A stretch of 64,000 bases of DNA, from the IMG/VR virus record IMGVR_UViG_3300006749_000012, positions 1-64,000 of that record; one strand, given 5' to 3'. This DNA is from a virus. Shown piece by piece: positions 16,783 through 56,800 of this stretch. Positions within the stretch are counted from its first letter, which is position 1. Each line of letters starts with the position of its first letter. Both the position numbers and the translations under genes were made by a program. The notes beneath the pieces are model-generated. The model was not told the DNA's origin and made no database searches. It saw nothing but the letters and a program-made list of their open reading frames with translations.

Positions 16783-18380
16783 TGGGTAAAATATTGGTGA
16801 AAAAGTCTGTCGACGTGCAATATCCAGTATCAGGTCAGCCAATACTTGTCACCGGCGGTGGCGGAGGTGGCGGCGCTTCTCCAAGGGGGATGACCCTTCA
16901 AGAAAGATTAAGTCGAATAGGAGGGGGAACCCTTGGTGCACTCGCTGCTGCGACAGGTCAACATCGCAGTTTAGGTAGCCTCGCACAAGGTATGGTATCA
17001 GGAGCCGCTCAAGGAAAGGCTATCGGAGGAGGTCTTGGACGAATGGCTACCACTCGTGCGGGCCAAGAGCGTGCTAATTTACGAGAAAGGTTGAAGCAAG
17101 AAGCAGCGGAGGGTAAAGCAGCCAAGCAGATAGCGAGGCGGAACCGAGGAGAGGGCTTTTTAACAAATTTACTCAATCCAATAGGTGCATACAACAGGCG
17201 AGTAGCAGATAGAGCAGCGGGTAGACTTGACTTTGCTCGACAGATGAATCGAGAGGCCGAAGATTATAGTCGAAATATGGCGGAACTATACCGTGATGTT
17301 GGTAGAGAACAATTCAATCAAATACGCAGACCTCAGTTGCAGCAAGAAAGAGCCAAATTACTTGCTGCTGCTAAAGCAAGAGGTGGAGAATTAGGTGCTG
17401 AACAAAAAAGAAAACTGGAAATGTTAGACAGTTTGGTGCAACGAACTGGCGCTCCTAATTTGGAACAGGCACTCGGCATATTGTCTAGCGTTAATCAAAC
17501 AGCATCTCCTCCACCGGAACAAGTAGGTAGTAACGTAAACATGGTAGGGGGTAAACTTACGGTAAACGGTCAAGAAGTCCAACCTGACGCTCAGGGTAAT
17601 TACAGTGCGCCGGGAGTTAGCATAACTGGTTCTTCCATAGGTGGTGGTGGTCCTGAAGAAACTGCTGCTGCTAAAAGAGTAATGGGTAAGGTTTTGGCTG
17701 CTGGCGGTAGTAACGCTGACGTTAAAGCCGCTATGACGCAACACATAGGGGAAAGAATAGCACAACAAAATAACGTAGGAGCAGTAAACCCTTCTGAGAT
17801 GACAGAGTATAATGCAAAAGCAATACGTGACACTATGGCAAGGCGTAATGAAAAACCACTTGCTACGGAAGAAAGCCATCCTACTCAACAAAAAATAGGA
17901 ACGGCTATTTCAAACGTATTGGCTACTCAAGAGCCTGAAACAGGTAACCCATTGGGTAATTTTACCAGTCCCGAAATGACTAATTCTCCTTTAGCGACAC
18001 AGGGATTAAGTGCAGCAAATATGGTTGCACCGCCCAGTGATGGCGTTGTCGCTGAAACTACGGCAGATAAGCAAGCGGAAAATTCACAAATGAACCTTGA
18101 CACTACCCCTGAGCAAAACTTACACAGTCTTTTTGAAGCATTAGGGCCACCGCAAGAAGCCCGTAGTGCTGAACCTATTGGCACTGGTTACAGTGGTCCT
18201 AATCCAAACGTGCAAGCCTCAGAGAAAGCCGCAAAAGATATGGATTTAGCAGGATTTTATGCAGCGGCGGAAGAACAAAGTAGACCTATCGAGTATGATG
18301 AGTTTGGATTTCCAATACGAACAGGTGAGCCGATGGAATTAGCATTTAGATTACTCAAGATGATGATATTCAACAGGTGA
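16782..18380 (+). CDS. Glycine-zipper/coiled-coil protein with C-terminal GEPMELAFRLLK tag; putative ejection protein
   Basis: IGGGTLGALAAATG..GAAQGKAIGGGLG; tag at 18321-18359. Confidence 0.65.
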   Translation: MGKILVKKSVDVQYPVSGQPILVTGGGGGGGASPRGMTLQERLSRIGGGTLGALAAATGQHRSLGSLAQGMVSGAAQGKAIGGGLGRMATTRAGQERANLRERLKQEAAEGKAAKQIARRNRGEGFLTNLLNPIGAYNRRVADRAAGRLDFARQMNREAEDYSRNMAELYRDVGREQFNQIRRPQLQQERAKLLAAAKARGGELGAEQKRKLEMLDSLVQRTGAPNLEQALGILSSVNQTASPPPEQVGSNVNMVGGKLTVNGQEVQPDAQGNYSAPGVSITGSSIGGGGPEETAAAKRVMGKVLAAGGSNADVKAAMTQHIGERIAQQNNVGAVNPSEMTEYNAKAIRDTMARRNEKPLATEESHPTQQKIGTAISNVLATQEPETGNPLGNFTSPEMTNSPLATQGLSAANMVAPPSDGVVAETTADKQAENSQMNLDTTPEQNLHSLFEALGPPQEARSAEPIGTGYSGPNPNVQASEKAAKDMDLAGFYAAAEEQSRPIEYDEFGFPIRTGEPMELAFRLLKMMIFNR

Positions 18381-36844: not shown

Positions 36845-38925
36845 GTTTTGGCGCTCATTACAAGGGTGACGTATCCGAAGTCACCATGGGTCATGAGACT
36901 GGCTTGTTAATTGAGCATGACCAACCAAGGACTTTTACTGCGGTATCTGCTACTGACCACACTAAAATAGAGTTCAGAGGCGTTACCAACGTAGGCAATA
37001 CGAGTATATTTGAAGCCGCTAAGCCGATACTAAAAGTTCCACTAGGTATGCTGATAGGTCAAAAGATGACCTTTCATTCTACTGCGACAGGAACTAATGC
37101 ATTTTCTAGTTATTATAACGACTCATTCAAAAGTAGAGTCTACACCATTGTAGACCACACATTAGAAAACAACACAGATGGCTCACCTACGGCTGCTACA
37201 ATAATAAAGATAGTTCCTGCGTTGAGGTTTCCAGCAGGCACTACTTCGATAAGTAGTGGCACAGGTGATGCTATATTCTTACATTCGCTAGGTCTACCCA
37301 CTGTTCAAGGAGATAATAATTTTGCAATGAATACTGCGGCATCTTCATCCAAAGAAACTAGCATGATTGACCAATTCATAGGACTTGCCAGTTTCATGAC
37401 ATTACCTGACACTACCGTAGATTTGCACAGTTATCATGTTGTAGGATTAGGTAGGCAAGTGGCTGTTCAGCAAACTGGTAAAGTCCATCACATGGGAGGC
37501 TCTTTGGAATTACCATTACACAGTCCTAAGTGGTTATTTTACAGTCTAGGCAGAGAGGTGGTAAGTAAAGATAAGTGTGGTGCGTTAGCGCATTCTTCTA
37601 GCCCAGTGCCTACTATATTCGCTAATGTTGCACCCGGCCAAGGGTTTATCGACGTAACTAGCAGTCAAAGCGCTAGCGTTAGATTTGGTTCAGGAACTGA
37701 TGCGGCAGTAGGTGATTACTTACTTATCAAAGATACTACACTTGTTCCTACAACTACATACAAAACTCCACAAAAAAGCACCGATAAATATTGGCCTCCT
37801 GAATCTTCAGGTTCTAATTTAGGCAGTGACAGCCATCACTTTGAGTGGTCAGAAAGCAGTGAGTGCAGGCGAATAAGTGCAATCGAAGGATTAGGAAGTA
37901 GTCGATTTCGATTGTATGTAGATGGCCCTTGGCAGTTCCAACATACAACCGGTGACACTCTTGAATTGAGACAATACCACGACTCTAATACCAACGGTAG
38001 CCCTAACGTCAATACTACACGCACAATCACTAACCCGATACATAGGTTGCTTTTCTCTGCTGAAACTATACCTAGTTTCTCCATAGAGCACAGTATAAGA
38101 AATCGAGACTTGGGCTCATTCAATGCAACTAGTGAATCTACGGTAGCACCCGGCAATTCAGGCGACAGTAAACAACTTACTCGTATCTTCAAAGGTTGTA
38201 AAGTAGTTGAGTGGGAATTGTCATCGACAGTAGATGCTGAATTGAAATACAGATGTGTGTTTGATGCACTTGCTTGTTATACAGACACTGGCAGATTGGA
38301 GTCTAGTAGCAAAGGAGACAGATACACTGCACATCGTATGTTCCAAAACACTGCTGATACTTTGAAGGGTAGAAAGGCTAGTGGGATAGCGGATAAATCA
38401 GAAAAGCCTTTTATGTTTTACAACGGAACTATACAGGCGTTTGACCAAAATCTAGCATTCGTCACGGCGTTTGAATTAAGAGGTAAGACTGGTGTAGAGT
38501 TATTCCATACCATACAAAGCAATCCTGTCGCAGAGTCAGTTGATTCATCGACTAATCTCAGCCTAAAACAAATACCTTACGGGGGAACTCGCAATGCTAG
38601 TATAGTCAGAGAAGGTAGGGAAGATTTTGAAATGGAAATAACATTGGCCTTAGAGGACCAAACTCTATTCCACGAATTAAGAACTCACATACAAAGAAGC
38701 GGCACTGTCAATGCACAAGGTGGTGTCATCATGTTACACTTTACCAAGCCAGTAACTACTGGAGATTCCGGCACCACTCCTAGTCTGAGGGTAATGGTTG
38801 ATGATTATTTCATAACCGAGTTACCCATACCTATGCCTGATGACAAAGGTCTGCTGTTTACTACCATGAAGATAAAGCCTCAAAACATTAAAGTGATAAG
38901 TGAGGATACGGAGTATCATTGTTAG
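36841..38925 (+). CDS. Major tail (tube) protein with inserted domains
   Basis: Position before chaperone pair; PSFSIE, RIFKGCKVVEWEL, PFMFYNG, REDFEMEITL tube-like motifs. Confidence 0.7.
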   Translation: MSFGAHYKGDVSEVTMGHETGLLIEHDQPRTFTAVSATDHTKIEFRGVTNVGNTSIFEAAKPILKVPLGMLIGQKMTFHSTATGTNAFSSYYNDSFKSRVYTIVDHTLENNTDGSPTAATIIKIVPALRFPAGTTSISSGTGDAIFLHSLGLPTVQGDNNFAMNTAASSSKETSMIDQFIGLASFMTLPDTTVDLHSYHVVGLGRQVAVQQTGKVHHMGGSLELPLHSPKWLFYSLGREVVSKDKCGALAHSSSPVPTIFANVAPGQGFIDVTSSQSASVRFGSGTDAAVGDYLLIKDTTLVPTTTYKTPQKSTDKYWPPESSGSNLGSDSHHFEWSESSECRRISAIEGLGSSRFRLYVDGPWQFQHTTGDTLELRQYHDSNTNGSPNVNTTRTITNPIHRLLFSAETIPSFSIEHSIRNRDLGSFNATSESTVAPGNSGDSKQLTRIFKGCKVVEWELSSTVDAELKYRCVFDALACYTDTGRLESSSKGDRYTAHRMFQNTADTLKGRKASGIADKSEKPFMFYNGTIQAFDQNLAFVTAFELRGKTGVELFHTIQSNPVAESVDSSTNLSLKQIPYGGTRNASIVREGREDFEMEITLALEDQTLFHELRTHIQRSGTVNAQGGVIMLHFTKPVTTGDSGTTPSLRVMVDDYFITELPIPMPDDKGLLFTTMKIKPQNIKVISEDTEYHC

Positions 38926-38935
38926 GGGGAGTTTT

Positions 38936-39154
38936 ATGCCAATGAGAACATGGATTTCTTTAACCCCTGATTGCTATTATGCTATTCCTATCAATGACGA
39001 AGAAGAAGAAGGAGGAGAATACCTCTTTGACCCGGAAGCAGGGAGAGCCAGCGATGACCCGTTCGCTCACCTGAAAGCGGAGGAGTCCCCCGATAATTCG
39101 GCGGATTCCGGTAAGGAAGTGAGTAAGTATGTCGGAGGAACAGAAGAAGAATAA
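38936..39154 (+). CDS. Small acidic hypothetical protein
   Basis: ATG after GGGGGAG; fills gap between tube and chaperone genes. Confidence 0.5.
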   Translation: MPMRTWISLTPDCYYAIPINDEEEEGGEYLFDPEAGRASDDPFAHLKAEESPDNSADSGKEVSKYVGGTEEE

Positions 39155-39494
39155 AATAGAAATAAATGGCCTACCTTTTGAAATTACAGCGAAACGCTTG
39201 ACATTCTTTGATATTCAAGCAGTAGCGCCGTTACTTATGGATGGGACTATGGACTTTTCTCGATACTGGCGACATGCTTTCAATAACTGGCTAATCTATG
39301 ACGATTACTTCGACATGGAAAGTTTGACTCCCGAAGAAGGTAACGCATTGGCTGCTTTACTCCCTGACCCTAGCACAGTGATGGAGTGGTTGGTTTTTCG
39401 GGAAGCGAAGTCGGTAACATCAAACAGTTCATTCACGGACGATTCGTCAATGACAGGCTTCGCTACCAAAGGGAAGGAACAGAATATCTCTTGA
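39129..39494 (+). CDS. Tail assembly chaperone (gpG-like)
   Basis: Position after tail tube; overlapped by a -1 frame ORF at a slippery site. Confidence 0.7.
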   Translation: MSEEQKKNKIEINGLPFEITAKRLTFFDIQAVAPLLMDGTMDFSRYWRHAFNNWLIYDDYFDMESLTPEEGNALAALLPDPSTVMEWLVFREAKSVTSNSSFTDDSSMTGFATKGKEQNIS

Positions 39495-39658
39495 TGACAC
39501 ACTATAATATGGGGCTGAAAGAAGTGAGGGGACTAAGTGTGGACGATGCTAAGCAATTGATGCACTGGGCACAGGCGATGCATGGTGAAGAAAAATTACC
39601 TGATAACGCAGTTTATTTGGGCTATGACGTAGTGCCACCAGTGGAGGAAATAGCATGA
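39386..39658 (+). CDS. Tail assembly chaperone C-terminal extension (gpT-like), probably made by -1 frameshift
   Basis: -1 frame relative to 39129 ORF; LMTHYNMGLKEVRGLSVDDAKQLM resembles gpT-type helices. Confidence 0.65.
   Translation: MVGFSGSEVGNIKQFIHGRFVNDRLRYQREGTEYLLMTHYNMGLKEVRGLSVDDAKQLMHWAQAMHGEEKLPDNAVYLGYDVVPPVEEIA
39392..39398 (+). promoter_or_regulatory. Candidate -1 ribosomal frameshift site G-GTT-TTT
   Basis: In-frame TTG GTT TTT CGG at the start of the overlap with the -1 ORF. Confidence 0.6.
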
Positions 39659-39849
39659 CTGTCGTAAGGTGTCTACTTTGTAATAGTGAAGAATTAGAAA
39701 ACGATACTGTAATTATGCAAGGTAAATGGAGCAGGTTGGTTAATTATGCAAACAAAAGATATAGTGCTATCAGTTGTAAAAATTGCGGATACACTATGTT
39801 ATTCAAAGAAGGTGCTAAATTTAGTATACTTGAGGCTATGGTAGGGTGA
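39655..39849 (+). CDS. Zinc-ribbon protein (DUF2082-like)
   Basis: CLLC...ISCKNCGYTMLF; SD GGAGG. Confidence 0.7.
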   Translation: MTVVRCLLCNSEELENDTVIMQGKWSRLVNYANKRYSAISCKNCGYTMLFKEGAKFSILEAMVG

Positions 39850-39853
39850 ACAT

Positions 39854-40333
39854 ATGGTAGAAGGAGATATTGACCCACGTTCCGTCGAGGCTATGGATAA
39901 GTTCAAAGATTACAGTAAGGCTGCTAAAGAGAATATGGAAGCACTACAACAGCAAATGGACAAATTCACCAACTCAATGGCAATGACTAAAACTCACACT
40001 AAAGACTTGACTGCTTCTTTGAGAGACTTGAGTAATTCGGAGCCCTTTCATCATATAGAAGAATCCATCAAAGAAGTGCAGAGTGGTTTAGAGCAGACTA
40101 TGAATCGCACTCAGTCACCAGCCGGTGGCCCTGCTCGTGAAACTATGACGGCTGGCGCACAAGCGCCTAGTGTTCCTGATGTTACAGTCAATTTGCGTAT
40201 AGATGTTAGTGGAGTAACTGACAAGACAGATAAAAGAAATCTAGCAAAAGAGATAGGAAATATGGTCACTAAAGAATTGAGGACTAAGATGGGCGGCTCG
40301 CTTACTCAGAGTGGGTTCAATAGGAGTGGTTAG
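39854..40333 (+). CDS. Very short tape-measure-like protein
   Basis: Occupies TMP slot; N-terminal coiled coil; TMP-type C-terminus VTVNLRIDVSG...LAKEIGNMVTKEL. Confidence 0.55.
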   Translation: MVEGDIDPRSVEAMDKFKDYSKAAKENMEALQQQMDKFTNSMAMTKTHTKDLTASLRDLSNSEPFHHIEESIKEVQSGLEQTMNRTQSPAGGPARETMTAGAQAPSVPDVTVNLRIDVSGVTDKTDKRNLAKEIGNMVTKELRTKMGGSLTQSGFNRSG

Positions 40334-42853
40334 ATGGCAGACGAAGGAGAAAGAATGCCGGTTAGACTTGTTCAAGAGAACGGTGATACCATCTCACTTG
40401 ATGCAACTAGTATCGATATAGTTGTAGAAAGACAACAGTCCAACTTCGGCATACCTTTCTTTGATGCTAGAAAAATGGCAATAGACCTTAATCAAACCCA
40501 AGTGGCAGTAGAGATAAATGGTATACTAGCAGACGAGGTAGGTCAAGAAGTAACCGCTCAAGCGACCGCTACGGTAGACCTCTATCAACCTCAACAACTT
40601 GTGAATTGGGGGCAACCAATTAACAGCGGTGGCGGAGTCAATACCGTTGCTGTATCTTCGTCTTTCAACAGCGGGTCTACTTCTACTGGTATAGGTAACA
40701 CTGGCTCTTTTGGTTCTTCTTCTTCAGGATTTGGCGGCTCATTGGGCACGCCTCCGACTGATTTCAAAGATTTAGGAAATAACATTTTACAATATTGGAA
40801 TAAGCGCTACATAGATTTCCCTGTTGCTTTTTGGGTAGAAGAATCGGGCGCTTTAGGTGTCCCCGTTACAAATGGTTTACAATTGAACTTGAAGTCGGAT
40901 TCGCTTGCTAGCACTTTATCTCATAATGATTTAATAAACAACTGGACAGACAGTAGTGGAAACGGTAGAAACGCTACTCAATCTAGCACAATTGCACAGC
41001 CTAGATACAAAAAGGCCTCAGAGTTTGATTCTTATATCCAGTTCGATGGAGTCAATGACTTCTTGACTATATCTAATGAGCCTTTTCTTAACTCAGAAGA
41101 ATTTACTTTGATAGTCGCTTGTAAAAATAGTCATTTCAATGGAGTTCGACCAATAATAACATCTAGTGATGCTTCTAACAGCGGCTATGCTTTGGTGATA
41201 GATAGAGGTAATACTAAGGGTCAGTTCAAGTGGGAAGGGACTTCTTCAAATACATTAGACACCAGCGGAATATCTGTTAGACACGAGCCGCACATATTTT
41301 CTGTTGTTATGAAAGACAGTGATTCTGATGCACAGTCTGATACAGTTACTTTGTTTATAGATGGAATTTCTACTCAAACTACTTCTACTGATTTTACACC
41401 TGAAGATAGTTCTGCATTTAACATAGGCAAAGACGCTAGTAACTTTTTCCGAGGTGCTTTGTATGAAATATTATTTTACAATAGGGCTTTGACGGACAAT
41501 GAACTTCAAAGTGTAGAGGGCTATCTTTCTCGTAAACATGACATCAAAATTAGAGAAGAAGGGCATGATTATTATGAAAATAGTTCTTACAACTTTGATA
41601 CCAAGCACATCAGAGTGGCTTTTGATAGTAAAATGGTGAGCAGTCAGCAAGAGCCTTACGGGTTCTTGAATCAAAAAAGAGTCATTAATGGTATGACTAT
41701 TTCTTCACTGAGCACTGATAAAAAGACTATAACTGTAACAGGTGGCAATCCTCAACAGTTTTTTGAGGTTGATGAAACCGAAAGACCTTACTTAATATCA
41801 TTTCAAAGCAGCACAGGTGTTTGGCGCAAGAGCGGCGGTAGAATATACAAAGGGCAGGTTACAGCGGTAACCTCAAATACAATTTCTGTGGAATTTGTTG
41901 ACCTTTATGGTAATTCTGCTGTCCATAGCGCTGGTGATAAGATATACATAATGCCCATAGATTATGGTATAAGTCGCTTACATAGCACAGAACTGACACC
42001 CGTTATAATTCTACCAATAAAAAACGCTGATACTTTTGATGAGCAAGCCCTTCCTGAGAAAGCGGTGGGTCCTGAATTTCCCAATCACCAAGATACCAGC
42101 GGTAGAGATAGTGGTAATAATCTAACTAGAACTGATGAATATATTACCTATTTATTATCAAAGGCGTTGACTGCCAGTTACATAGATTTGAATCGCCCGG
42201 TTGATTCAAGTGGTAACACGACGCTAAACAAAGTATTCTCGACTTCTATATCCAATTCTTTTAGTGAGCACGCTAGTAGACTAACTATAACTCAGTTACA
42301 TGCTACTTCTCTTGGTAGTTTATCTGATACTATAAACAGTGATTTAGGGTCAGGTCAATTACCTGTCATACAAGGTTTCTCAGGCGGAAGAAGCGGAAAG
42401 CGAGTCAAGAGTGGAGGAGATAAAGCACAAGACCTCATAGGTATACTTTCTAACAGTAACAACTATGCTACCAATCCTGATATGAATTTCGTAACAGACG
42501 CTTTACAAATAGGGCTCGATTTCTTATCTAATCAAATAGGTGCCGCTGACATGGGTGGTGATTTCATAAGAGGTATACAGATACCTTACAATTCATTCAA
42601 TACTAAAGGTAAAAATGTATTAGACGCTGAAGTAGCCCAGCGCAATTTTTTCTTAACAACAGAAGGTAGCACTTCAGACAAACTATCTAGTGCTAATACA
42701 GTTCATGCTTCAAGGTCTTTTGTGCATTCAGCCGAAGGTCATTTTAAAAATGGAATAAGCGGACTGGTCACTGATTTGAGTTTGCAGCGAGACGCTGAAA
42801 TGAAAGCCTACGATTTCAGTTTGAAATTCATAGCAGCGGATATAATTTTGTAA
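40334..42853 (+). CDS. Distal tail/baseplate-like protein with LamG (ConA-like) insertion; paralog 1
   Basis: WTDSSGNGRNA, FDGVNDFL, FRGALYEILFYNRAL, VEGYLSRKH. Confidence 0.7.
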   Translation: MADEGERMPVRLVQENGDTISLDATSIDIVVERQQSNFGIPFFDARKMAIDLNQTQVAVEINGILADEVGQEVTAQATATVDLYQPQQLVNWGQPINSGGGVNTVAVSSSFNSGSTSTGIGNTGSFGSSSSGFGGSLGTPPTDFKDLGNNILQYWNKRYIDFPVAFWVEESGALGVPVTNGLQLNLKSDSLASTLSHNDLINNWTDSSGNGRNATQSSTIAQPRYKKASEFDSYIQFDGVNDFLTISNEPFLNSEEFTLIVACKNSHFNGVRPIITSSDASNSGYALVIDRGNTKGQFKWEGTSSNTLDTSGISVRHEPHIFSVVMKDSDSDAQSDTVTLFIDGISTQTTSTDFTPEDSSAFNIGKDASNFFRGALYEILFYNRALTDNELQSVEGYLSRKHDIKIREEGHDYYENSSYNFDTKHIRVAFDSKMVSSQQEPYGFLNQKRVINGMTISSLSTDKKTITVTGGNPQQFFEVDETERPYLISFQSSTGVWRKSGGRIYKGQVTAVTSNTISVEFVDLYGNSAVHSAGDKIYIMPIDYGISRLHSTELTPVIILPIKNADTFDEQALPEKAVGPEFPNHQDTSGRDSGNNLTRTDEYITYLLSKALTASYIDLNRPVDSSGNTTLNKVFSTSISNSFSEHASRLTITQLHATSLGSLSDTINSDLGSGQLPVIQGFSGGRSGKRVKSGGDKAQDLIGILSNSNNYATNPDMNFVTDALQIGLDFLSNQIGAADMGGDFIRGIQIPYNSFNTKGKNVLDAEVAQRNFFLTTEGSTSDKLSSANTVHASRSFVHSAEGHFKNGISGLVTDLSLQRDAEMKAYDFSLKFIAADIIL

Positions 42854-42862: not shown

Positions 42863-44872
42863 ATGGCTATTCCAATAAAAATCTTGGCAGGGCACGATGG
42901 TGAAATAGCAGTAGATTTAGAGGCACAAAGTATTGATATGGTGATAGACAGAAACGTATCTGCTTTCCCAACCCCTAATAATTTATTAAAACGCATAGCG
43001 ATAGATACTAACATACCTAGAGTTACAATGGAAATCAATGGTATACTAACAGATGACGAAGGTATAGATGTGACACGGGCTTCGGGCGTGGAAGATTTGG
43101 TTTCTGTAACTCCTATGAGAACTTTGATTAATTTCGGGAGCCTCATGCCCACTGAACCTAATTCAAACTTTACACCTGTTAAAAGAGCGCTTGGGATGAA
43201 ACGACCAGTTTCCGATACGCTTGAGTTGTCTGTCCGCAATTCTCTTAGTAGAAACTCTACTAACACCGTTGAAGATTTACATATTGACCCAACTCTCGTA
43301 ACGGCAGCCGGTGTTTTACAACTAGTTACTAAAATACAGACTAACTTAAAATTTACTGGGGCTCATAGCGTAGGTGCAACCGGCGCTCTTGCAGTTAGTG
43401 CTAAAATCGTAGGAGTGTCTACTCCTGCAAATATTCTCATTAGCAAGGACGATAGGATAGTGAAAAGTTCAGGAGAATTGATTGGCATAGTGCAATCGGT
43501 AACTAATACAACTGTTACGTTTACTGCGGGCATCGCTCACTCCATAAGTGCGAATGACAAACTTTTCGCTAGCGCTAAGTGTTTTAATCACAGAAATGAA
43601 TTTTTAGGTTATACTACTAATTTGACATTTAACACTACGGGTGCTAAGAATATAACGTCAGTTGATTTAACACTGGATAGAAAAATAGAAAGTGACATAT
43701 TGGCGGGAACTAAGTTAACTTTTAACAAAAGCAATGACTCCTTAGAAAATTTACTGCATTATAATTGTATAAAGATAATTCCTTCTTATTGGTTGGAGGA
43801 CCCAAGTCGTGGCCCAACTGGTAGTGACCCACGAAGCGATGTAGCGTTTAGTAACAATGTGTATCCTAAATACGGTATCAAGTTCATATTTGACGCTACT
43901 AAGACACCTACCATTGCCGGAGGTAGTGATACGCCCGCACTAAATACTGGCAACCAAATATTTGAAAGAACTTCTTATCATCAAGGTTATTGCACTCCAC
44001 CGACTCTTGATGCTGCGTTTAGAGATTTAGAGATATTGATACCAATCAAAGGTATAACTTCTTTGCCCGACAATCAAAGTCCGGCTGAAGGGTTGGCCTT
44101 ACTATTATCACAAGCGCTCGCTCTAACGACTACTTTTACAAAAACCGCAACGAATGATTCGTTTACACTAAATCCAACTGACACATCTACTTTGGCGGCT
44201 ACATTCAACGTGACCCGCAATAATTCTATTGTATTGATTGAGCAAACATACAAACCCCAAACACCAGTAGAGCATCCTGAAGTCTTCAATGATAGGCTAA
44301 AAGAAACTGTAAACATCCAAGCATTCAATTCTATAAGTGCATTTTCTTCTCTTGGAACTAAGTCTGCTGGAGATAAAGCGCAGGATTTGATTGGTTTGAT
44401 TTCCAACTCTAGCACTAACACAGGTGATTTATTCAAAGGTATTCAAATACCATACGATAGTCTAATCACAAGTTCGGGAGTTACAGGGGTTGCTCGCAAT
44501 TTCTTTTTGACCTTTGGAGAAATACCCGCATCAGAAAAAACTTCTTTGAGCAATACTCGTGCAGCATCGGACACTATGTTAGGGCTGCAATTGACTGGAG
44601 ATGCTGGCGGAAATAAAACTGACAGAAGCAATAATGAAAAGTCACTTTTAGAAGAATGGTTTGGCAGTGCAGGTGAGGCAATTGAATCGTTAGTAGGCTT
44701 TGTAACAACGGCTATATCTGATATTTTTATAACACTAAAGAGTGACGCACATGGTAATGATGGCGGAATACGCATCATACCTGAAAAACTTCATGTGCGC
44801 TATGATGCTGGGAACAACTACTACGCATACAGTTTACTTCTAGTAGCGACAGACTTTGTGATAGGTGTATGA
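42863..44872 (+). CDS. Distal tail/baseplate-like protein; paralog 2
   Basis: Shares EINGIL, KSxGDKAQDLIG, GIQIPY, RNFFLT blocks with 40334-42853. Confidence 0.7.
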   Translation: MAIPIKILAGHDGEIAVDLEAQSIDMVIDRNVSAFPTPNNLLKRIAIDTNIPRVTMEINGILTDDEGIDVTRASGVEDLVSVTPMRTLINFGSLMPTEPNSNFTPVKRALGMKRPVSDTLELSVRNSLSRNSTNTVEDLHIDPTLVTAAGVLQLVTKIQTNLKFTGAHSVGATGALAVSAKIVGVSTPANILISKDDRIVKSSGELIGIVQSVTNTTVTFTAGIAHSISANDKLFASAKCFNHRNEFLGYTTNLTFNTTGAKNITSVDLTLDRKIESDILAGTKLTFNKSNDSLENLLHYNCIKIIPSYWLEDPSRGPTGSDPRSDVAFSNNVYPKYGIKFIFDATKTPTIAGGSDTPALNTGNQIFERTSYHQGYCTPPTLDAAFRDLEILIPIKGITSLPDNQSPAEGLALLLSQALALTTTFTKTATNDSFTLNPTDTSTLAATFNVTRNNSIVLIEQTYKPQTPVEHPEVFNDRLKETVNIQAFNSISAFSSLGTKSAGDKAQDLIGLISNSSTNTGDLFKGIQIPYDSLITSSGVTGVARNFFLTFGEIPASEKTSLSNTRAASDTMLGLQLTGDAGGNKTDRSNNEKSLLEEWFGSAGEAIESLVGFVTTAISDIFITLKSDAHGNDGGIRIIPEKLHVRYDAGNNYYAYSLLLVATDFVIGV

Positions 44873-44873
44873 T

Positions 44874-47800
44874 ATGACGCTAACGATTGACCCCGGATTT
44901 GGAATAAGATTCAACGGTATAAGCGATAGCATATTAGTTCCTGTAAACACTAAACTTATTCACGGAGTTCAAACCGAAGAACGTAGAGGATTACCTAAAG
45001 CAATAAATTCGTTTACGATAGAAAGTTGGTTTATACCGGATTGTGGAGGAGTAATATTTGAGCAAGAAAATGTCATGCGATTGACAGTAGGTAGCCCTAG
45101 CAGCCCTGCACCCGCCACGTTTGAAGTTCGGTTAAGAAATCCCGCAAGTGGTAGAGACGCAGTTTATACTTTATCAACTGCTAAACCAATTACCAAAGTA
45201 AATGGTAGGATTGCATATTATGAAGGTATACAGTTCCCGGTAACAGATTCTCTACATGGTTCTTATTTAGCAACTGATGTTGATAGAAACGATGTCACTG
45301 CCTTTAATGATGGGGCTAGAGAATTGTTAAATGTGACTGTGATGTTTGATAGAAGAACAATAAGTATGTTCGTGAATGGTGATTTAGCCGTATCTCAGGA
45401 ACTAGAGGAAGAACATGAGTTAGTGACTCAACAGAATAGCATTTATCTTGGAGGTAGAGGCGGTGATTTCAGAGGAACATTAGAAGCCATACATTGGTCA
45501 AAAGGTGCGTTAACTTCAGGCTATCAACAGTATGCTCCTATGAAAAGTGACAACACTATTGGGCTTTGGAGGTTTGAAGAACCAGTGAATCCTATAACTC
45601 TGATTACTACAACTCCTTCTATCTCTGCATCTACTTCGGCTACTTCTTCGATTAATATAGGGTCATCTGCGGCACAGTCTCTGATAGACGAACTCAGTGG
45701 TCAAAGTGGACTTACGTCAATTAATTTTACAGCCAGTCCTTATAGTGGAGGCAGTTACAGCGTCAAGGTTCAATCCGCTTCTTCATCTGCTACTGTAAGT
45801 ATACCAAAGGTGCCCTACAATATTTTAGTCAACCCGTTAGGGTATAGTCAAACCACTGGTAAGCCTACTAATAAATCTCCTGAAAGACTAAGGTTGATGT
45901 CGGCAGATTCCAGTGCTGGAACTATAACGGTTGAGTCTATACACCTTGATTTTGCATCTAACGCTAGCAACGGCAGGAGAGGTGTTTTGTCTAACCACGA
46001 TGCTGGTAGATTTGTAATTATCACAGGCGATTGTATAATTGATACTGGTAACGGTAACGAATTTCAACCTTATGGCACAGGCACACAGTTTTCTCAAAGG
46101 CAAGGTCAAGTGATTATAGATGAAAGTGACTTTGCTAATAATGGAATAATGTTTTCTCAAAGCATGGCAATAGACAGTCATGAATACAACAAATTCTCTG
46201 CAAGTTCTGCAAATATGGGCTCTCAGTTCTTAGCAGGTCATTCGGGTAGACACACTCTGAATCATGTAACTAGCCATCCGTTCATGGGCGTGTTACCGCC
46301 CACTGAGAGTCACGTAGTAGAGAAAAAGTTAGACATAGGCAGTGACGTAATATCGGCTTCATTTCCTTCACAATTTTCTGACATTAGGTCAACTGTCCCT
46401 ATGAATAGTATAGTTTCCAGTTATGACACTAGCGGTAACATCAAAATCAAATCTGTAACGAACCGTGCTGAAATAACTTCGGTGGTAGAAAATGGAATGT
46501 CAGACATCGACGATACGCAAAGAGGCATTTTGGCAGTAGGTGGACTCAATTTTAATGTAGAACCTTTCCTAATAAGGTCTTTATCTTCTAATAATGAACT
46601 TGATTCTTCTAAACATGCTATTCCTTCTACTAGAAATAGAATAGCAATACTATCTGTTCCTGATTTAGCGACTTACAATTACGCTCCGTTCGTGCAATTG
46701 CATTACAATGCAGTTGATTTAGACGGAAGTCAGTTTGGGACAGGGGCTACCTCTCGTTTAACGGCTAACATAACTGGTGGTAATACTGTTTTAACTTTAC
46801 AGAGCGTTAAATCGTTTGGATTCGACGGTGAACTTATACCAGCCTCGCTGATAGATATAAACGGCACACCTGCTTCTAGTTTAAGCGATAACACCGCAGA
46901 AATAAATTACTCTGCAAAGACACTGACATTTTCAGCAGCGGCTGACTCTGCTTTCAATACACTGGCTGTAAGTGGTAACATAGTCAAAAAGTCCGATACC
47001 GGGGCTAAGATTTTAGTAACTGATACGCTACCTAAAGTGAGCACGATAGTGACAGGTAGCACGTCCATACTGGACTTGATTAGAACAGCGCTAGACGCTA
47101 GCCCGTTAGAAATATTCTCTCCCGGTGCAGTTATAGAATTTGACAAACCTGAAATGTTCGGGCTTTCTGACGGTGATTTAGAAGGAGAAAGTAGCGAAGG
47201 GCAGGTAGCCGAAAGTGTCCTTAACAGAGATTTGTCACCTGAAAATTATTTACCGTTGACATCGGCTGATTCTCCACAAACTACTCCTCAAGCAATTTCG
47301 TTGGCTACTTCGGAATTAGTCGAAAGAGGCTCGGTCCTCAATAGAATTTTAATTAGGAGCCATAAGACTAGCATAGGTAACTTTGAAGAAAACGCAGGTA
47401 TTACACTCCAAAAGTCTACTAATGGTATAAGACCTAGAAGTGGTGTAAAGTTGAATAATGGCTCAGGATATGCGGCTTCTACCACTGGCGCTATGACAGT
47501 CGACGGAATAGACGCTACTGCGGTAATCAATGTAGGAAGTTCTATCTTCAAAGCAAATGGTAAAAACTTAGGAACTGTAACTGCGGTTACAAGCACTTCT
47601 GTTACTGTGGGAGCAGGAACCTCTGACGCTTTAGTAGATGATGAAGAAATATTCACACAGCCTCAAATGGTAGGTAAAGGAACTATAAATCAAAGCAGTT
47701 GTGTCCATGAATATTTTGACATAATCGAACACAATAGCAATGAGAAAAAGGTCAAGTTAATTATACAACCTAGCGATAATAATCGCTTTAATTTAGGTAG

Positions 47801-50800
47801 AAGGTTATCAGCATCTGCTAGTTTTGCTAATCGTATAAGTATAGAGAACTTAGTCTCTCGTGGCAGAATTGTTTCTTTCGCTAATGGCGACGAGGGTAGC
47901 ACCATTATGAGAGCACACGGAGTTATAGGCGACTTGGCATCATCCAGTGTTTATGTAAAGGGCTCTGCTTCGCCCGACTCCCATATCGTGAAAGAAATAA
48001 TGCCGGGAGCGCCCGTAGTCACTATGACACTAGGTGGCCCCGGACAAGGTGCCGTCAATACCAAAGACACTTGGACTCCAAGTCCGTTATCTAGGATGGC
48101 TTGGAATACTCGTAGAGATTGTCAGACTCGTGTAGAATTTACAACCAGCACTACAATAACAGTTGCACCGCTGAACAATCAATCTACTGATTTGCAATCT
48201 TGGGGCACATATTGTTTTCCTAAAGAAGGTAGGGTGTATTTAGAAATAGAGGGCAATCAAGGTGAACAAAGGCGGTTTGCAAGTGCCGCTTATGCCAGTA
48301 AAACAGGTGATGTTTTTACTTTCACATCTAGCCCCCCGTTAGGAAGTGGCACTCTTATAGCGGCTGATGGTAGTGAAGTAGATACATTTGCCAACTGGAT
48401 AACATCTACCGGTATAACCGCAGGTAGCGTATTGCACGTTGATGACAAATTCGGAGAAGAATCGATGTGCAATGACGGCACTACTATCAATGACAGGTTG
48501 TTTCAAACACTTGATACTGTTCAACACGACTACCAATTAGGAACGCAGTATGCAAGCACTCGTGCTTTAGTAGAGATACCACTGTTCAACGATTTCTTTT
48601 TCGATAACCCTGATAAAGGTATTTTCCCCGGCCCTAATAACAGTATGAAATTACACGTAGACGCTACGCAAACAGCACATTCTTGGAGCCCTAATCCTGT
48701 CGGGAGAAGGCCCGAATCTATATCACCACAGGACCCTGAAGTGTTTAGTGCGTTTTCATTCACTATACAAAACGAAACTCATCGCACAGGGACAAAAGTA
48801 ACTCAACCTTACGATTCAAGTAACAACCGAATATATGTAGAAGATATAGGTATATTCCCGAAGGCTTCTGCTCCTCCCATAACAGTGGCTAGTTTAGGAG
48901 GCTCTGCTAGATACAGAAGGGCTTTCTTAGGTAACGGAGAGTGGGTAGTTTACGACGGTCTACACACCGACGGTTACTTAGATTTGGCAGGTTCTTCATC
49001 TAGTGGATATATAGCCAGTGCTAATTTCTTCCGTGATTTAAAAGTAGGCGCTCATCTATTCCCAGCACCGGGGTATCAAGACATGAGTTATTCAGGTATT
49101 GCTGATAACCCCTCTCTAATTAGCGCTGGTTATGAAAATAGACGTTCGTTTTACTTTGACCGTTCTAATGTAATGACCCAAGGTGGTAATACTGATTACG
49201 GGTTAAAGCAATATGTTAGTGCAATAGAACTGAGAGCCGGGCCAACAATAAACCCACATCTACCTAAGATTATCAGTAAGCGACCAAGAGCGAAGGTGAT
49301 TTCTGTAACCGGAAGCCCTGCAACTTCTTTGACATTAGACGATGCTAGTTTGTTTCCAATAAGTTCACCTGACTCGGATTACAAATTCAGAGTAGCATTT
49401 AGGAATGCAAGTGGCATTGTCAATCGTGGATTTTACGATAACAGGGTAAATAGCGTGCTCACCATAGTTAGCCCTGATAGTGGTTTCACTCCATCTGTTG
49501 GAGATGAGATATATGTCGAAGATTTACATGCCACTGCTTCAGCCACCTATCCTAAAGTGAAAGAGACTTTCTTGAATAGAGCATGGTCACATCCTTATTG
49601 CAACGGTGGTCTGAGACAAGGTGATACAATTTGGATGAACATGCATTACACTAACCCTCATGCTATAGAAGGCTTGTTTTGCAAAAGTAGAGGCACACTA
49701 AACGAGGCTGAAGTAGTCGATGTGTTCAATGGCGGAGAGGGCTCTTTTGACGTTAGTCCAAGAAATAGTATACCTATGGAAAATTTCTTGATAGGTAATA
49801 CTTGTATAGAAACGGCTCAGAACCTGATGCAACATATAAACAAAACAGTATCGTTAAATTATGATGCGATTGGTTTGACAGAAACTCCTCCAACAATCGC
49901 TTACTTAGACCCTTACCAGTGCACTGAAAATTTTGCTAGAGTTTTATTATACGATGTAGAGCATGACCGTGAGTTCATTGCATTCCAAGATATACACATG
50001 CAAGTTCAATCTAGTCCAGCAGCGGCTAGTATTGGTAAAGAAGATACTGGCAAAACTGGCTTTGTTAACAATTCAGTTACAGGTTCAGGCTCTTTGTTAG
50101 ATGTAGCGGCAGGTTTCCCTACTGAAAACAAAAGGCTCAACATTACTGAGAAATCAGATTTCATAGAGGCATCTTACGCTCACAAGTCTACTTGGAACTC
50201 AAACGTGCCGAATGTAAACTTAGAGCATGTTGTAGGAGGAGTTGACAATACTGCTACTAATGGTTACACAGACCGCACTAACAACGCTGTCACTCTAAGT
50301 GGCAGTGCCTTGACTAAGCATCAAGAGATAGATTCATCAAGTCGAGAACAGTCTACGTTCTTTGATACACCTGACGGAACTAGAGTTATACCTGCATTCT
50401 TAGCAATGAAAGGTATAAGGAACAGTAAATTGACTTTAGATGATACTAGACTGAACAACCTTGACCAATGGACAGATATGGATTTCGTTAGAAGGTTGAC
50501 GATTGATATGGGGGAAGTCCGCCTCAAAGATGGAGTTACCAACATAGAGTCAGCCGCTAGAGAAGTAGTAAGAATGATTAATCAAGCGGGTGCTAAAAAC
50601 GGTAAGACTCATGCCAAAAAACCTGCTGACCAATATTTAGGTAGAAGTGATAACTTTGACCCCTCCTCTCCTCATAAAAATTCAGACTTTGCTGCCACAG
50701 CATCTACACACGACCCCTCCCCATTTTGGGATGTGAAGAAAGCATTCTCTAGCCATGACAGAGGCACTCACATGGGCTACGTCCGTGCTCACCTTGGTAG

Positions 50801-53800
50801 AGTGGTAAAGGATGAAGAAGGCGTAGAAGAAGGATTCTCTATTGTAATACACTCTACCGTTCCGGGTGCCGCAGGTCGTAACTTTTGCACATGGCTAGAC
50901 AATAGTAAATCACAGACTACTTACAAGCCCGAATACTTAATTGGGCACGGTGGTAGATTTAGGAATTATTGGTGCCAACCTGATGAAATTACTGGAGAAA
51001 ATATGCACCCGGCTCCTATGCCAATCAATAGATTCGGTAGACCGTTTGCTCCTATAACTACTCTGAAAGAATACTTACCACCTGAAAGCCCTGACGATGC
51101 CTTGTTGAATAATGTCAATTTAGGTGCGGACATAGTAAATAGTTTTGGAGTCATCTCTACTTCTAACACAGAAATGGTAAGTGGTAGAGATTCTAATACG
51201 GTATTGAACGAATCGTTTGAGACAAAAAGTCCCGCATCTGTCTTAGTAGATGGTCTTAGAGTAGGAACTAAAGCGAAGGCTAGAATCAATTTCGGAGGAA
51301 TGACTCAGGCCGGAATACCCGGATGGGCCCCTGATGTTTCTAAATGGGGATTCGATAATGACGGAACTACTAACGTAGCAAGATACGGTAATGCTAGTAA
51401 CGCAGCAACTGCAATGACTAACACAACTGAGCAGGTTAGTGGTAACGGTTACATACCAGCAGATGATATGAAAGCAGAAAACATTGGTCAAAGTCCAATT
51501 TATGGATTGAGATTTACGGACCATAGAGGTGATAATCACACTATAAGATTACTTTACAGACGGTTTGGAGAAAACTTTGCTAGTGACAACACTTACTTAC
51601 CATCTACGCTTGATGAGGAGATAATCATACACTTTGACGATAGAGACGTAGGTCAAGGTGGGTTTACGATTGGTCGTCACATGGTGGGAGTGGGAGAGGT
51701 ATGTGGTGAAAAAACAGGTGGTAACCCCATAGAGTTTAAGGGTAATCTTTGGAACAATTACCCTTCTCCGATAGTAGGTGCTAAAGTAACCACTAGTTAT
51801 TCAAGTGGGACTATGACTGTCACGTTTCACGAGCCTTATGGTAGTGGCGGTAGTGGGACAGTTCCTTCTACATTACAAACGCATCCTGACATTTTGGGAT
51901 ACTTAGGTTTCCCTGAAACGGGCATGTTTCAGTTATCTAAGCATGGAACTGGAGGCTCAAATCACCAAGGGTTACCTTTCTACTACACTAGCAGAACGCA
52001 CGAAAATCACAGCGGAACTCACAAATTCTTTGGAGTGATAGGAGGAGCGGGAAGTCATGCAAATGGTGATTGGCTTTTGAGTCCAAGAATAAACTTCACA
52101 TGCTTACTAACTGATGAGGTCATCGCTGCCGCAGTAGAGCACGCAATCAATTTACCTAGTAACGATAGTGATGTCACGTTCGACTGCACTGATATGTTTG
52201 CACCCGATGGGAGAACTCTAAAAGAATGGAACGTCAGTTCTGAGGCTATCCGTATAGTTACAAGGGCCGATAAGAAAACTCCTATGAGCAAATTCTTTGA
52301 GGCTAAAGTTACTAAAGACTGGGGGTTGCAAAATGGAGCAGCAACAGATGCAGCGGTAAGCGGACATCACACTGGAGGATTGAGTGACAGTGAAAAAGAT
52401 GCGGGCACTAGATTAGATGTAGGATACATACCTAAAACGGTGCTACATGTAGATACTAAATTCCGTGGAACTAACGCTAACACAGCCACTCCTGTATTAG
52501 TCGATAGTCAAAATAACATAGTGGACATTACTACTTGGCAAAGAAATCTAAGAGGAGAAAATTTCACTGACGTAGCGGGTGACCATATCATACCAAGAGT
52601 GGATTCACCTTGCGTCGAAGTAGATTCTTTTTCTGACCCTGACATTAGTGTGGCATCAAACGAATCTTGGGCTTTATTAGGCAAGCCCGCTAGTGTTGCT
52701 AATGGTTGGGGAGAGCCGTTTGTAGTATGGTATAGTGATACTTCTTGGGCAAGGGTTAGAAGCAAAGTCGGAACTACTTCTGAAATAACGGTTAGTATAG
52801 AACATAAGAGTGCAAATCCTGTCGCATTTGCTAACCCTGTGCAACATGATATATTGTGGAAAAGAAATGCTAGTGCTTACAAGTTTTTAGATGTAGACGG
52901 AGTTCGTAGGGCGGGGAGTAAGAACTCTAGTCCTTTCCTTTACTTTAGAGGTGGGCGAGATAGCCCTGACCACTGGGTGCCTCTTTATTTCGGAGGTGGT
53001 TTTAGTGGTGCAGTTGTAGATATAAACGACGGGACTCAAAACGACTACTCTGAGTTTTACACTCATCCTTATTCTTCCGGCCCCACGGGTAGCGCAGGCT
53101 TCCAAAACATAGGAGAGGTGGCGGGCTCATATGCATTATTAGACGCAAATGCTATGCTAGCCATGTTCCCCGGCACACCTTATCTTGACCAGCATAGAGG
53201 GCAAAATAATCCACCTTATTTCAACCAAGACGCTATATTGCCATTTGATATGGCTAAGGGTTCCAATTCAAAGGTCACAGGGTTAGATTATACCGACGGT
53301 CAGAACACAGTATCTGTCAACATACCTAGTCCAATCGTCATAAGATTTGCCCATCCTAATGCAAGATACAGCCATACGGGTGATAGCGATGACCAAACTA
53401 CATACATGATATTCGGTCCCGGTCAAGCGTTCCCTCACAACACTGCTTCGTTTGAGCCACAAGGAAAAGACATAATCACAGCAGGTAATGGTTATAGTGC
53501 AGTTCCTATCTATATAGACGGCGACCCCGGCTTAGATACTTTTCTTCCTAATCAACTGGCTAACGGTGACACAGCAGAGCACAGTGGTCTCAACAGGATT
53601 TCTGAGGTTTCTGCTCATTTACCTATGACTACCTTTTTCCAACAAAATAAACGCTCAGGCTACAACTATGTTATGAACTGGGAGCCTGCTAAAGGATTGC
53701 CGTCTACTACGACATCTGTTGCCGGTAAAGTCTACTCCCAAGCCTATAATCATGCATTCTATTACGAAGGCACACCGGGAACCACTGCTAATTTACCTAA

Positions 53801-56800
53801 GCACTATCATCCTTTCAGTGAAATATTCAGCGATATTAGCAATCAAATAATAGGGACTGGAGCATTCCCTAAAACAAGAAAATCAGCAGTAATATGGCAC
53901 ATGGATGGAGGCTATCACCCCGGCGGTCATTTCTTAGATGACCACGTAAATAAGAATCCTAAACAAACTGTTGCTAACGCTAGAGTGATAAATGGTAGTG
54001 GTGCTAAGAAAAACACTACTGTATTCAGACCATGTGGTCTATTATCAAAAGCCTACAAAACAAAGTATGGGGGAGATGGCTCTACTCAAGATGTAGATGA
54101 AAACATAGTAATTGTAGACGCCACTAGATGCCAAAATGCAGAAGAATTAGGCGCTGTAATCAGCGGTGCTATCAATACCTTCCCCGGTAAAAACCCATTG
54201 AAGGCGATAGGTGGGACGTTTATGCCTAGTATGCAAAACGCTCACAAACAAGATAGATATGGCTGGGTGCAATTAGACATTGATTCTTATCAAGCAGAAA
54301 ACAGTGGGAATCCGGCCACTCTAACTGCAATTAACTCTGCCACCACGTTGCCTGAATATGGGTGGTTGAGAGTGAGTAACGGTATTGAGTCAGGCTACGC
54401 ACCGTATATAGCCACGAGTATATCTCATCCTAACACGGCATTTGTGCTTGGTAAAAATGCCACAACTTCAAACACTAACATTGTCAATCCTGAAACTAGG
54501 TTAGCCATAGCACCCGATGCTTCTTTCAAGGCTTTTATTTGGACTAAGGCTGGAACTCATAGATTCAACAACACAACAACTAGTCACAGGGACCACATTT
54601 GTCAAGTGCATTACAGTGGATTTGTAGACGCAGTAGATAGAACAAAGCCGGTAGGAGCAGTGGGTTGGGCCGGAGAAGCCTACTCATACTTCAATTCTTA
54701 CGAAACCGATGCCATAGGTGCACGCATTCATCCAGCAGGATTAGGTGCTTGGCATCCTTTCTTAGGTTTCAATCCTTATGGTGCCGCTGAAACTTGTTTA
54801 TCAGCCTCCTCTCCAGTGGGTTCAGTTGAAACTCCACTCGCCGCTTTCTATGCAGATTACTGTGTGAACGGATTGTCCAGTAGACATTTGATTGCTATAA
54901 CTCACGAAAGTGAGTTACCCTTAATCGCTAAGGCTGATAGGGACGGAATAACTTGTGCGGGTGATTGGCTAAAAGTAGCAGAGACTGGAACTATAACTCA
55001 TGCTGGAACTATTGCTTGGGATACTAGTAAAGTGCACAATAAGAGTAGGTATGTGGGACCTGCCACTGCTGGCCCTCATGTCGAAGCGCAAATGCATAGC
55101 GGATATTCAAGACCTTCCGCTGCTAGCGATTATCCTAATTCAGGCTCTGCACCAACAGATGGGCAATTGCATAGAGCAATACAAAGTGGTGACATGGTTA
55201 GGTCGAACGCATGTAGATTTGCCACAGGAGATTTGTTTTGGGATGAAAGCGTAGTCAAACAATCTGCATTCCACGAAGATGCTGGCACTTACGGTGTAGA
55301 GTGTGTGGGTGTGAGTAACCATGACCATTACTTAGACGTAACCGCTACTCCACATACTGGTTTATTTGGCTATTACGGAGGTAGACACCCTTCTCGTAAT
55401 TTTTTACCTGAACATGTAGTTTGGAAAAGAATGGATGGCGGCGGCCTGACTATGCCAGCAGTCAATGCTAGAGGGCTAGGTATGGTGCCTTGGGTAAAGC
55501 GTAAAGATGGTGGTAGTTACAAGTTAGTAGGCGAAAAGGTGTTAGGTAATGTTAGATTTAGTTTTGAGACAACTAATGCTGCTATGTTCCCTGTAATACA
55601 AGCACAAGAACTGAGTCATCCTCAGTTAGCCGAACAGCATCCGATGAGAGTCACTAACGCTTTACTTATACCAAACGAACACATGCAATTTGAAAGCGTG
55701 CAAGTAATAGATGACACAGGTCAAGAACATAGACTAGAAGGAGGTAGCCCTCTAGGAACTGTGATATTAGATTTCAGACACATTAGTGATAGAGAAATAG
55801 AAGGTTTAGCGCCAGCGTTAGCGGGCGCTGGTGTATCTCCTAACTTGAAAATAAGGTTACCCAACCCTGACGAAATACCCGGTAACATAGTAGTTAGGTC
55901 AGGATTTGATAGAATACAGTCGTATCAAAATGAAACAGTTGGTTCAGGAGGATTGCAGCACCCTGCTCAACAGGTGTCTAATATTAGAGAAATGTTCAAC
56001 AACGATTACAGCGGCCCTCGTCTTTGGCCTACTTGGGAGAACAACGGGTGGGAACATTTGAGTCAAGATGGCTCTGATATTTCTACGACTAAAAGTAATA
56101 GTCGTTTGAAATTCCCAGCATCTACTAACGAAGGATGGTCAGATTACACTGACAATGCGCCGTTAAATTCGGCTTATGAGCCTCATGATAGAAGTCTATA
56201 CTTCCATGTTACACGGATGGGTGTAAGTATGACTCACCGTTATGATGTAGATGAATTGTCATTCAGCGGATATGACGAAACTAACAGTGAGATTGACGTT
56301 ACCTCTACTCCTGAGTCAGGCACTTGGACTGATACTAGCGAGCAGAGTGGAGGTAGGTATTTCCTAAGAGTGTATGACCCTACAACTGACAAAGGAGTAT
56401 TGGCCTCATACACAGGGGTAGGCACGAACAAATTCACGAGCGTCGTTGTTTCTCCCGACTTTGTGTCATTTGTGACGGGGAAGACTGGATTGAAAGTAGT
56501 TCCTAGTTACTACATGCCTGCTGGTAGCACTCGCATGTTCGCAGCAAGAAGATTACGTGACCATAGTGAATATAGTGGCGCAAGTCCTGATATGAAAAAA
56601 ATAGATTGGTTTTCGATGTTTGATAATTTACCAACGTCTACCGGGGCTATGGTAAATCCGTCACAAGCCCACATAGCACTGTCTAAGCCCAAGATGACAC
56701 CTATGCCTATACCTCGTATGGGCCACCATTACATTACACCTACAATGGCACTCATGCCCGGACATTATGCACATCCTGCATACCAAAGAATATACGATTT

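Follow-up and report, generated by a model that had tools for sequence, protein, structure and literature searches.

The DNA analysed here, hereafter the window, comprises bases 1-64,000 of the 79,956-bp IMG/VR record IMGVR_UViG_3300006749_000012, for which CheckV gives a completeness of 77%. All long ORFs in positions 1-64,032 are encoded on the plus strand, and the head genes among them specify a large terminase, a portal, a prohead protease, and an HK97-type major capsid protein. In the 16 kb beyond the window, the record has minus-strand genes, including a thermosome-type chaperonin (PF00118, E 8e-128) and a block with a family B DNA polymerase, a PD-(D/E)XK nuclease, and an RFC-like AAA+ ATPase. 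A weak minus-strand match to the primase large subunit (E 4.9e-4) falls below the Pfam cutoff. The record thus displays the HK97-type head module, the thermosome, and the archaeal-type replication block on the opposite strand that characterize magrovirus group A (Apasviridae, Magrovirales), and its gene set agrees with the published accounts of this group, which was described with a thermosome (PMC5434244, PMC12999244).

Judged by gene content, the window matches published descriptions of group-A-like magroviruses, and it would belong to a tailed dsDNA virus of marine group II (Poseidoniales) archaea. In the surface ocean, viruses of the group A type rank with the most abundant viruses of archaea, and we know of no image or proteome of any magrovirus particle. 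The "helical tail" attributed to magroviruses in the literature is deduced only from their kinship with haloarchaeal siphoviruses (PMC12999244). Among these, the Druskaviridae have siphovirus morphology, and their capsid and portal proteins group with the magrovirus ones (PMC8651126). A literature search found no paper discussing a magrovirus tape measure protein (TMP).

The tail block of the window contains the following genes, in order:

34659..36371, plus strand: probable head-tail connector or neck protein, 570 aa (ESM Atlas leads; no sheath family)
36371..36844, plus strand: tail terminator or completion protein, 157 aa, assigned by position only, directly upstream of the tube gene
36841..38925, plus strand: major tail tube protein, 694 aa, of the double-tube-domain type with extra decoration domains, assigned by predicted fold
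38900..39154, plus strand: small acidic protein, 84 aa, lying between the tube gene and the chaperone pair and conserved across 72 of the 80 relatives
39129..39658, plus strand: putative tail assembly chaperone pair, gpG/gpGT-like, 121 aa plus 90 aa in the -1 frame (frame and slip site)
39655..39849, plus strand: Zn-ribbon (DUF2082) accessory gene, 64 aa (PF09855, E 2.9e-11)
39854..40333, plus strand: miniature TMP, 159 aa, with predicted N-terminal amphipathic helices (8-60 and 64-85), a variable linker (86-120), and a C-terminal module (about 110-150)
40334..42853, plus strand: candidate distal-tail (Dit-like) protein by position, 839 aa, with a LamG/ConA-like insertion (PF13385, E 7.7e-11)
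42863..44872, plus strand: paralogue of the 839-aa protein, 669 aa, with common N- and C-terminal domains and a different middle
44865..60575, plus strand: giant tail-tip or fibre protein, 5236 aa, rich in Gly, Ser, Thr, and Asn

Sequence and conservation of the 159-aa protein

The ORF at 39854-40333 begins with ATG, ends with TAG, and has a Shine-Dalgarno-like GGGTGA 4 nt upstream. The earlier note, prepared from the nucleotide sequence, had stated that the TMP position holds just 159 aa without repeats or transmembrane segments, and hydropathy and repeat analysis agree. The highest 19-residue Kyte-Doolittle mean of the protein is 0.5, compared with 2.8 in a 571-aa homologue, so no hydrophobic segment is present; no tandem repeat was found either. 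Hydrophobic or transmembrane segments, or a lytic domain, are common in TMPs, although they are not universal. The 159-aa protein has no direct match among the TMP families of Pfam and PHROGs. Its match to Pfam Fib_alpha (E 0.0088) is far below the cutoff and was taken as coiled-coil noise. In a tblastn search of a phage collection, neither the 159-aa protein nor the tube protein gave a match.

An IMG/VR scan yielded 252 relatives, of which 80 loci were examined for gene length and order. All 80 encode a homologue of 135-163 aa, and all 80 keep the order tube gene, chaperone pair, 135-163-aa gene, and tip genes. A comparison across relatives, through which the earlier note proposed to check its claim of a miniature TMP, therefore finds the short length conserved. 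A search restricted to proteins of near length recovered 167 clusters, and those listed range from 124 to 163 aa; many come from marine assemblies, Tara Oceans among them, with contigs that reach 104 kb.

In an alignment, the mini family divides into three: residues 1-60 are conserved, the middle varies and has indels of about 20 aa, and the C-terminal 50 or so residues, which include a ..IDVSGVTDKTDK..LAKEI.. motif, are strongly conserved. Conservation of the N-terminal helix equals that of the C-terminal module. The lengths in the relatives (loci L003-L082) fall into two classes, 135-142 aa and 154-163 aa, with about 20 residues around helix 2 present in one class and missing from the other. 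Both classes are scattered over the clade when it is sorted by tube-protein identity, and the gap between them corresponds to roughly one tube ring's worth of ruler.

Relationship to long tape measure proteins

In a sister magrovirus lineage (loci L084, L088, and L090), the head-tail module is collinear with that of the window, and a protein of 567-573 aa occupies the slot of the 159-aa gene. Identity between the two lineages is 70-74% for the capsid protein, 46-51% for the protease, 45-47% for the 570-aa protein, 61-62% for the 157-aa protein, and 37% for the tube protein. Downstream of the gene for the long protein, the sister lineage has a gene for a 387-aa protein and next a giant ORF. Just upstream of the gene for the long protein, at about 8985-9413 in the three loci, lies a 142-aa ORF with a SAP domain (PF02037, E 5e-15).

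The long protein is a TMP by several lines of evidence. A search among longer proteins recovered proteins of 341-571 aa that carry the C-terminal module of the mini family at their extreme C-terminus. These module-bearing proteins match many PHROG families annotated as "tail length tape measure protein," with E-values down to 6.5e-25, and one of the sister-lineage proteins (P0134) matches annotated TMPs in 225 phage records. Hydrophobic segments are numerous in the members of 539-571 aa and number at most one in those of 341-343 aa. In a profile-profile comparison with hhalign, the mini family aligns with the group of about 570 aa at a probability of 98.4% (E 8.5e-15), through the C-terminal module only. 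The homology to TMPs thus covers the last 40 or so residues, about a quarter of the 159-aa protein. The match between the N-terminus of the 159-aa protein and the long TMP is collinear and insignificant (E 5.8).

When 1.84 billion representatives were searched exhaustively by profile, 134 proteins matched significantly. Of the approximately 115 matched representatives that do not belong to the mini family, many of them 250-600 aa long, nearly all have the module at the C-terminus or within a few residues of it. The mini family itself is represented by full-length members of 145-195 aa and by fragments. Five other short proteins (P0152, P0164, P0209, P0175, and P0157) were considered as further miniature TMPs and set aside, as they look like C-terminal fragments of long TMPs.

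The sister TMP and the 159-aa protein therefore share their slot in a collinear module and a homologous C-terminus of about 40 residues. They differ in that the sister TMP has about 400 more residues, many hydrophobic segments, and a GPEAV-type motif common to bacterial phage TMPs that is absent from the 159-aa protein, and their N-termini have no detectable similarity. The 159-aa gene is thus the positional orthologue of an undoubted TMP in a related genome. Because positional orthology and the homologous module coincide, the sequence comparison gives good support to the 159-aa protein being a genuine, strongly shortened TMP orthologue, and the identity proposed in the earlier note stands. 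Since bacterial phage TMPs have the centre of the long form in common with it, the simplest reading is that the mini form arose from a long TMP by losing about 400 central residues.

The tail tube and its accessory genes

The 694-aa protein matches Pfam Phage_tube_2 with an E-value of 6.9e-6, just under the curated cutoff. Its AlphaFold2 (AF2) model has a pTM of 0.72. Foldseek comparison of the model with the PDB retrieves the P74-26 tail tube (8ed0, E 3.8e-7), T5 pb6 (7qg9_A, 5ngj, and 9iny), and the DT57C tube (8hrg); across these matches, E-values range from 4e-7 to 3e-4, with a probability of 1.0. The predicted structure thus identifies this large protein, strongly conserved among relatives, as a major tail tube protein like T5 pb6 and that of P74-26. 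Profile searches against PDB sequences returned nothing usable for the 157-, 694-, 570-, 839-, and 669-aa families.

The two chaperone ORFs, 39129-39494 and 39386-39658, overlap, and all 80 relatives have the second one in the -1 frame. At about 39393-39401 lies GTT TTT CGG, a putative slip site. The overlap conserves TGG YTR NTT TTT CGG, and the most divergent clade alone has a canonical A AAT TTT C. The probable slip site of the window is non-canonical, with GTT TTT followed by a CGG Arg codon, yet it is conserved at the nucleotide level. Because the -1 frame is invariant and the T-run is conserved, the pair fits a chaperone frameshift of the gpG/gpGT type. In the sister lineage, the last two ORFs between the tube and TMP genes overlap in the +1 frame, not the -1 frame, and a C CCT TTG site sought in this overlapping pair is absent.

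Two small genes accompany the chaperones. The 84-aa protein has no family match. The 64-aa Zn-ribbon gene between the chaperone and TMP genes is found in only 11 of 80 relatives, which marks it as an accessory insertion in an otherwise fixed module.

The 157-aa protein upstream of the tube has a mean column identity of 81% among relatives. The 570-aa gene, which precedes it, is conserved in 71 relatives and in the sister lineage. The C-terminus of the 570-aa protein matches phrog_17057, a family without an assigned function, and ESM Atlas offers, as leads only, gp6-like connector or head completion proteins (scores 0.84-0.87). This protein is probably a head-tail connector or neck protein rather than a sheath. 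In relatives, it ranges from 430 to 773 aa, with conserved termini and a hypervariable middle, which suggests a neck or connector protein with an exchangeable, outward-facing domain. No tail-block protein matches a sheath family in Pfam or PHROGs. The siphovirus-type tail gene set proposed in the earlier note is accordingly borne out by the tube fold, the -1-frame chaperone pair, and the lack of a recognizable sheath in the block.

Tail-tip genes

The 839- and 669-aa proteins are homologous over their C-terminal 200 or so residues (hhalign 99.9%, E 3.8e-35) and also have N-terminal domains in common. Their large middle insertions differ, and one is LamG-like. The C-terminal region of the 839-aa protein is also homologous to the single 387-aa protein of the sister lineage. 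The group A lineage therefore has two large paralogues where the sister lineage has one gene. For the 387-aa protein, ESM Atlas returns tube-like families at scores of at most 0.82, which is chance level. The Dit, Tal, and terminator assignments are made by position only.

The 5236-aa protein has a LamG-like N-terminus and no family match in Pfam or PHROGs. The sister lineage has a homologous giant ORF after its Dit-like gene; there it spans at least 2,900 codons and is still open at the end of the locus. The earlier note had paired the miniature TMP with a huge tip complex, and this part of its reading does not hold as a specific association: the lineage with the 570-aa TMP has the giant ORF as well, so the giant tip protein does not compensate specifically for the short ruler. 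The earlier note further proposed that membrane-crossing functions had moved to head cargo, and no support was found for this. Two Gly-rich proteins of the window (7703-8671 and 16782-18380), considered as candidates for such relocated parts, show little conservation even between members of group A.

Search for another tape measure

A profile of the long TMP, searched against the entire 80-kb record, matches only the 159-aa ORF, through its C-terminus (E 2.2e-13). In five relatives of 97-109 kb that are 91-100% complete, only the mini gene matches. The TMP families phrog_991 and phrog_1535 have no match in five records (this record and four relatives that are 93-100% complete), compared with matches in 10 of 14 and 13 of 14 control genomes, respectively. 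Two long ORFs were considered and rejected. The 5236-aa protein is not taken as a TMP because of its high content of G, S, T, N, and P and its lack of any family match. The 2009-aa ORF is flanked by the portal and protease genes, and its sole match, a weak one, is to a ligase domain. The earlier note had reported no other TMP or sheath candidate in the window and had proposed a search of the rest of the genome for a long TMP; neither another TMP nor a sheath candidate was found in the window, in the remaining 16 kb, or in the five relatives, complete ones included.

Predicted structure and tail length

The AF2 model of the 159-aa protein is of low confidence (pLDDT 62). It places helices at 8-60, 64-85, and 124-146 and leaves residues 86-120 disordered. 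In the N-terminal helix, hydrophobic residues are spaced 3-4 apart. The predicted protein thus has the extended alpha-helical, coiled-coil character of a TMP, within the limits of a low-confidence model.

To our knowledge, the TMP sets tail length in every long-tailed phage studied. The classical rule assigns 0.15 nm of tail to each TMP residue, a figure that may not apply to the 159-aa protein because about 35 of its residues are predicted to be disordered. Two short TMPs of known context provide further scales. In the archaeal siphovirus HFTV1, the TMP gp40 has 341 aa and accompanies 11 tube rings and a tail of 56 nm; its C-terminal 25 or so residues dock in the baseplate hub, and a coiled coil lies in the tube (bioRxiv 10.1101/2024.12.09.627619). 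In RcGTA, the gene transfer agent of Rhodobacter capsulatus, the TMP g11 (Rcc01694) has about 216 aa and fills a tail of five tube rings; its helix of 113 residues is followed by 83 non-helical residues and a C-terminal helix of 20 residues (PMC7296036). The tail sizes calculated from these scales are as follows:

Classical rule, 0.15 nm per residue: about 24 nm for 159 aa and about 20 nm for 136 aa
HFTV1 scale, 0.164 nm per residue: about 26 nm for 159 aa and about 22 nm for 136 aa
HFTV1 scale, 31 aa per tube ring: about 5 rings for the mini family
RcGTA scale, 43 aa per tube ring: about 3-4 rings for the mini family

By analogy with these systems, there is a strong case that the magrovirus tail would be a non-contractile tube of about 3-5 rings, some 20-26 nm long.

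Alternative explanations

The short gene could in principle be an artefact, whether of assembly collapse, of a truncated call, or of reading as an independent ORF what is the N-terminal part of a 999-aa fusion produced by TAG read-through. In the window, the 159-aa ORF and the in-frame 839-aa ORF are indeed separated by a single TAG, and one database protein (P0122) is such a fusion with Tyr replacing the stop. This 415-aa protein, from a 97-kb contig, joins a miniature TMP in frame to a Dit-like protein and could reflect a sequencing error or a natural fusion. However, the TMP and the next gene are in different frames in 73 of 78 relatives (the same frame in 5), with TGA, TAA, or TAG as the stop; the 839-aa gene has its own AGGAG site; and TAG terminates other genes of the window too. 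Read-through was therefore rejected, as the shared frame is not conserved and the downstream gene has its own ribosome-binding signal. Assembly collapse, which the earlier note had named as a risk to its reading, is excluded by contigs from four public marine runs, of which three may represent the source sample and one (X5) is independent. These contigs cover 38800-41300 with 0-3 substitutions, no indel, and no joint, and the mini length recurs in 80 independent assemblies. An artefact of any of these kinds can for practical purposes be set aside. A contractile tail is highly improbable. Here, the 570-aa protein would be a very divergent sheath, and the short TMP would measure a short tail of the myovirus type. 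The succession of a 570-aa and a 157-aa gene resembles sheath and tube in size, and the 570-aa protein has no confident family assignment. The tube fold, however, is found in the 694-aa protein and not in the 157-aa one, and its best matches are double-domain tubes of siphoviruses. Moreover, the only leads for the 570-aa protein are head-tail connector families, no sheath family was matched in Pfam or PHROGs, and the related Druskaviridae are siphoviruses (PMC8651126). It is also very unlikely that the 159-aa protein is no TMP and acts instead as a small scaffold or tail-assembly factor whose short C-terminal motif resembles that of TMPs by chance, even though the homology spans only about 40 residues and no TMP family is matched directly. 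The gene sits in the exact TMP slot when compared with the sister lineage, between head and tail genes that are 37-74% identical; the motif is at the extreme C-terminus of short and long proteins alike; and the complete genomes contain no other TMP.

A different possibility is that the 159-aa protein descends from a TMP and has ceased to act as a ruler. Such a remnant would plug the tube or start assembly at the tip, and a longer tube would have its length set by another factor or be loosely controlled. In keeping with this, only the C-terminal module, of the hub-docking type, is demonstrably conserved with long TMPs, the middle of the protein is disordered and variable, and the tube protein is large and strongly conserved. 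Other observations count against it. The N-terminal helix is conserved as well as the C-terminal module, and the chaperone pair, which normally serves the TMP, is retained together with its frameshift. The lengths of the homologues cluster narrowly at 135-142 and 154-163 aa, the complete genomes yielded no alternative ruler, and the established role of TMPs in setting length speaks for a ruler as well. We regard a remnant of this kind as unlikely, with a small yet appreciable chance of being correct.

Proposed model and implications

The preferred reading is that the ORF at 39854-40333 encodes the TMP of a group-A-like magrovirus, reduced to a minimum and serving as a short ruler for a tube of few rings; we put its probability at about 0.7. 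According to this model, an ancestral TMP of about 570 aa would have lost its hydrophobic centre of about 400 residues together with the GGxV..PTLAxxGExGPEAVxPL motif. What remains in the 159-aa protein would be an amphipathic helical rod of about 80 residues at the N-terminus, then a variable linker, and lastly the C-terminal module of about 40 residues, which, as in HFTV1, probably anchors the protein in the tail-tip hub. The tip complex, formed by the 839- and 669-aa paralogues and the giant protein, would bind the TMP C-terminus, and the frameshifted chaperone pair would coat the helical part. The double-domain tube protein would then polymerize ring by trimeric ring up to the end of the short ruler, with the 157-aa protein capping the tube. 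The predicted outcome is a non-contractile tube of podovirus length made from siphovirus parts. In this scheme, the oligomeric state, the action as a ruler, and the number of rings are deductions, as is any account of how the membrane would be crossed by a virus whose TMP lacks hydrophobic segments.

A broader proposal, to which we give somewhat less than even odds, is that group-A-type magroviruses are "pseudo-podoviruses," with a T5-like trimeric tube of 3-5 rings, the smallest TMP known (136-163 aa), and a tip complex of more than 7,000 residues. If so, the loss of all hydrophobic segments would mean that the membrane-channel role of the TMP is dispensable for infecting an S-layer archaeon, and a single tube ring would separate the two recurring length classes (135-142 and 154-163 aa).

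The conserved 136-163-aa ruler predicts how these very abundant marine viruses would appear by electron microscopy, namely as short-tailed particles with large fibres. Sister lineages with rulers of 570 and about 150 aa on homologous tubes also constitute a natural experiment on the ruler mechanism, and the pair bears on whether the hydrophobic centre of the TMP is needed for genome delivery.

Comparison with known tails

The tube proteins of T5 (pb6) and the Thermus phage P74-26 have the duplicated tube domain seen in the 694-aa model and form trimeric, pseudo-hexameric rings, although their sequence identity to the 694-aa protein is only 9-16%. T5 and P74-26 have very long tails and TMPs of more than 1,200 residues, whereas here the same tube type is paired with a ruler of 159 aa.

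HFTV1 gp40 is also an archaeal-virus TMP without enzymatic or transmembrane domains, and the 159-aa protein likewise lacks a hydrophobic segment. This likeness is drawn from the published description. Unlike the 159-aa protein, gp40 has 341 aa; it is hexameric and works with a tube of hexamers of a single-domain protein.

The closest precedent is RcGTA g11, a very short TMP in a siphovirus-type tail with the same three-part layout as the AF2 model of the 159-aa protein. The protein described here differs from g11 in that it is shorter (136-163 aa across the family), is combined with a double-domain tube, and belongs to a replicating archaeal virus of about 100 kb. If the model is correct, the magrovirus tail would be the shortest ruler-built tail that we have found described, below that of RcGTA.
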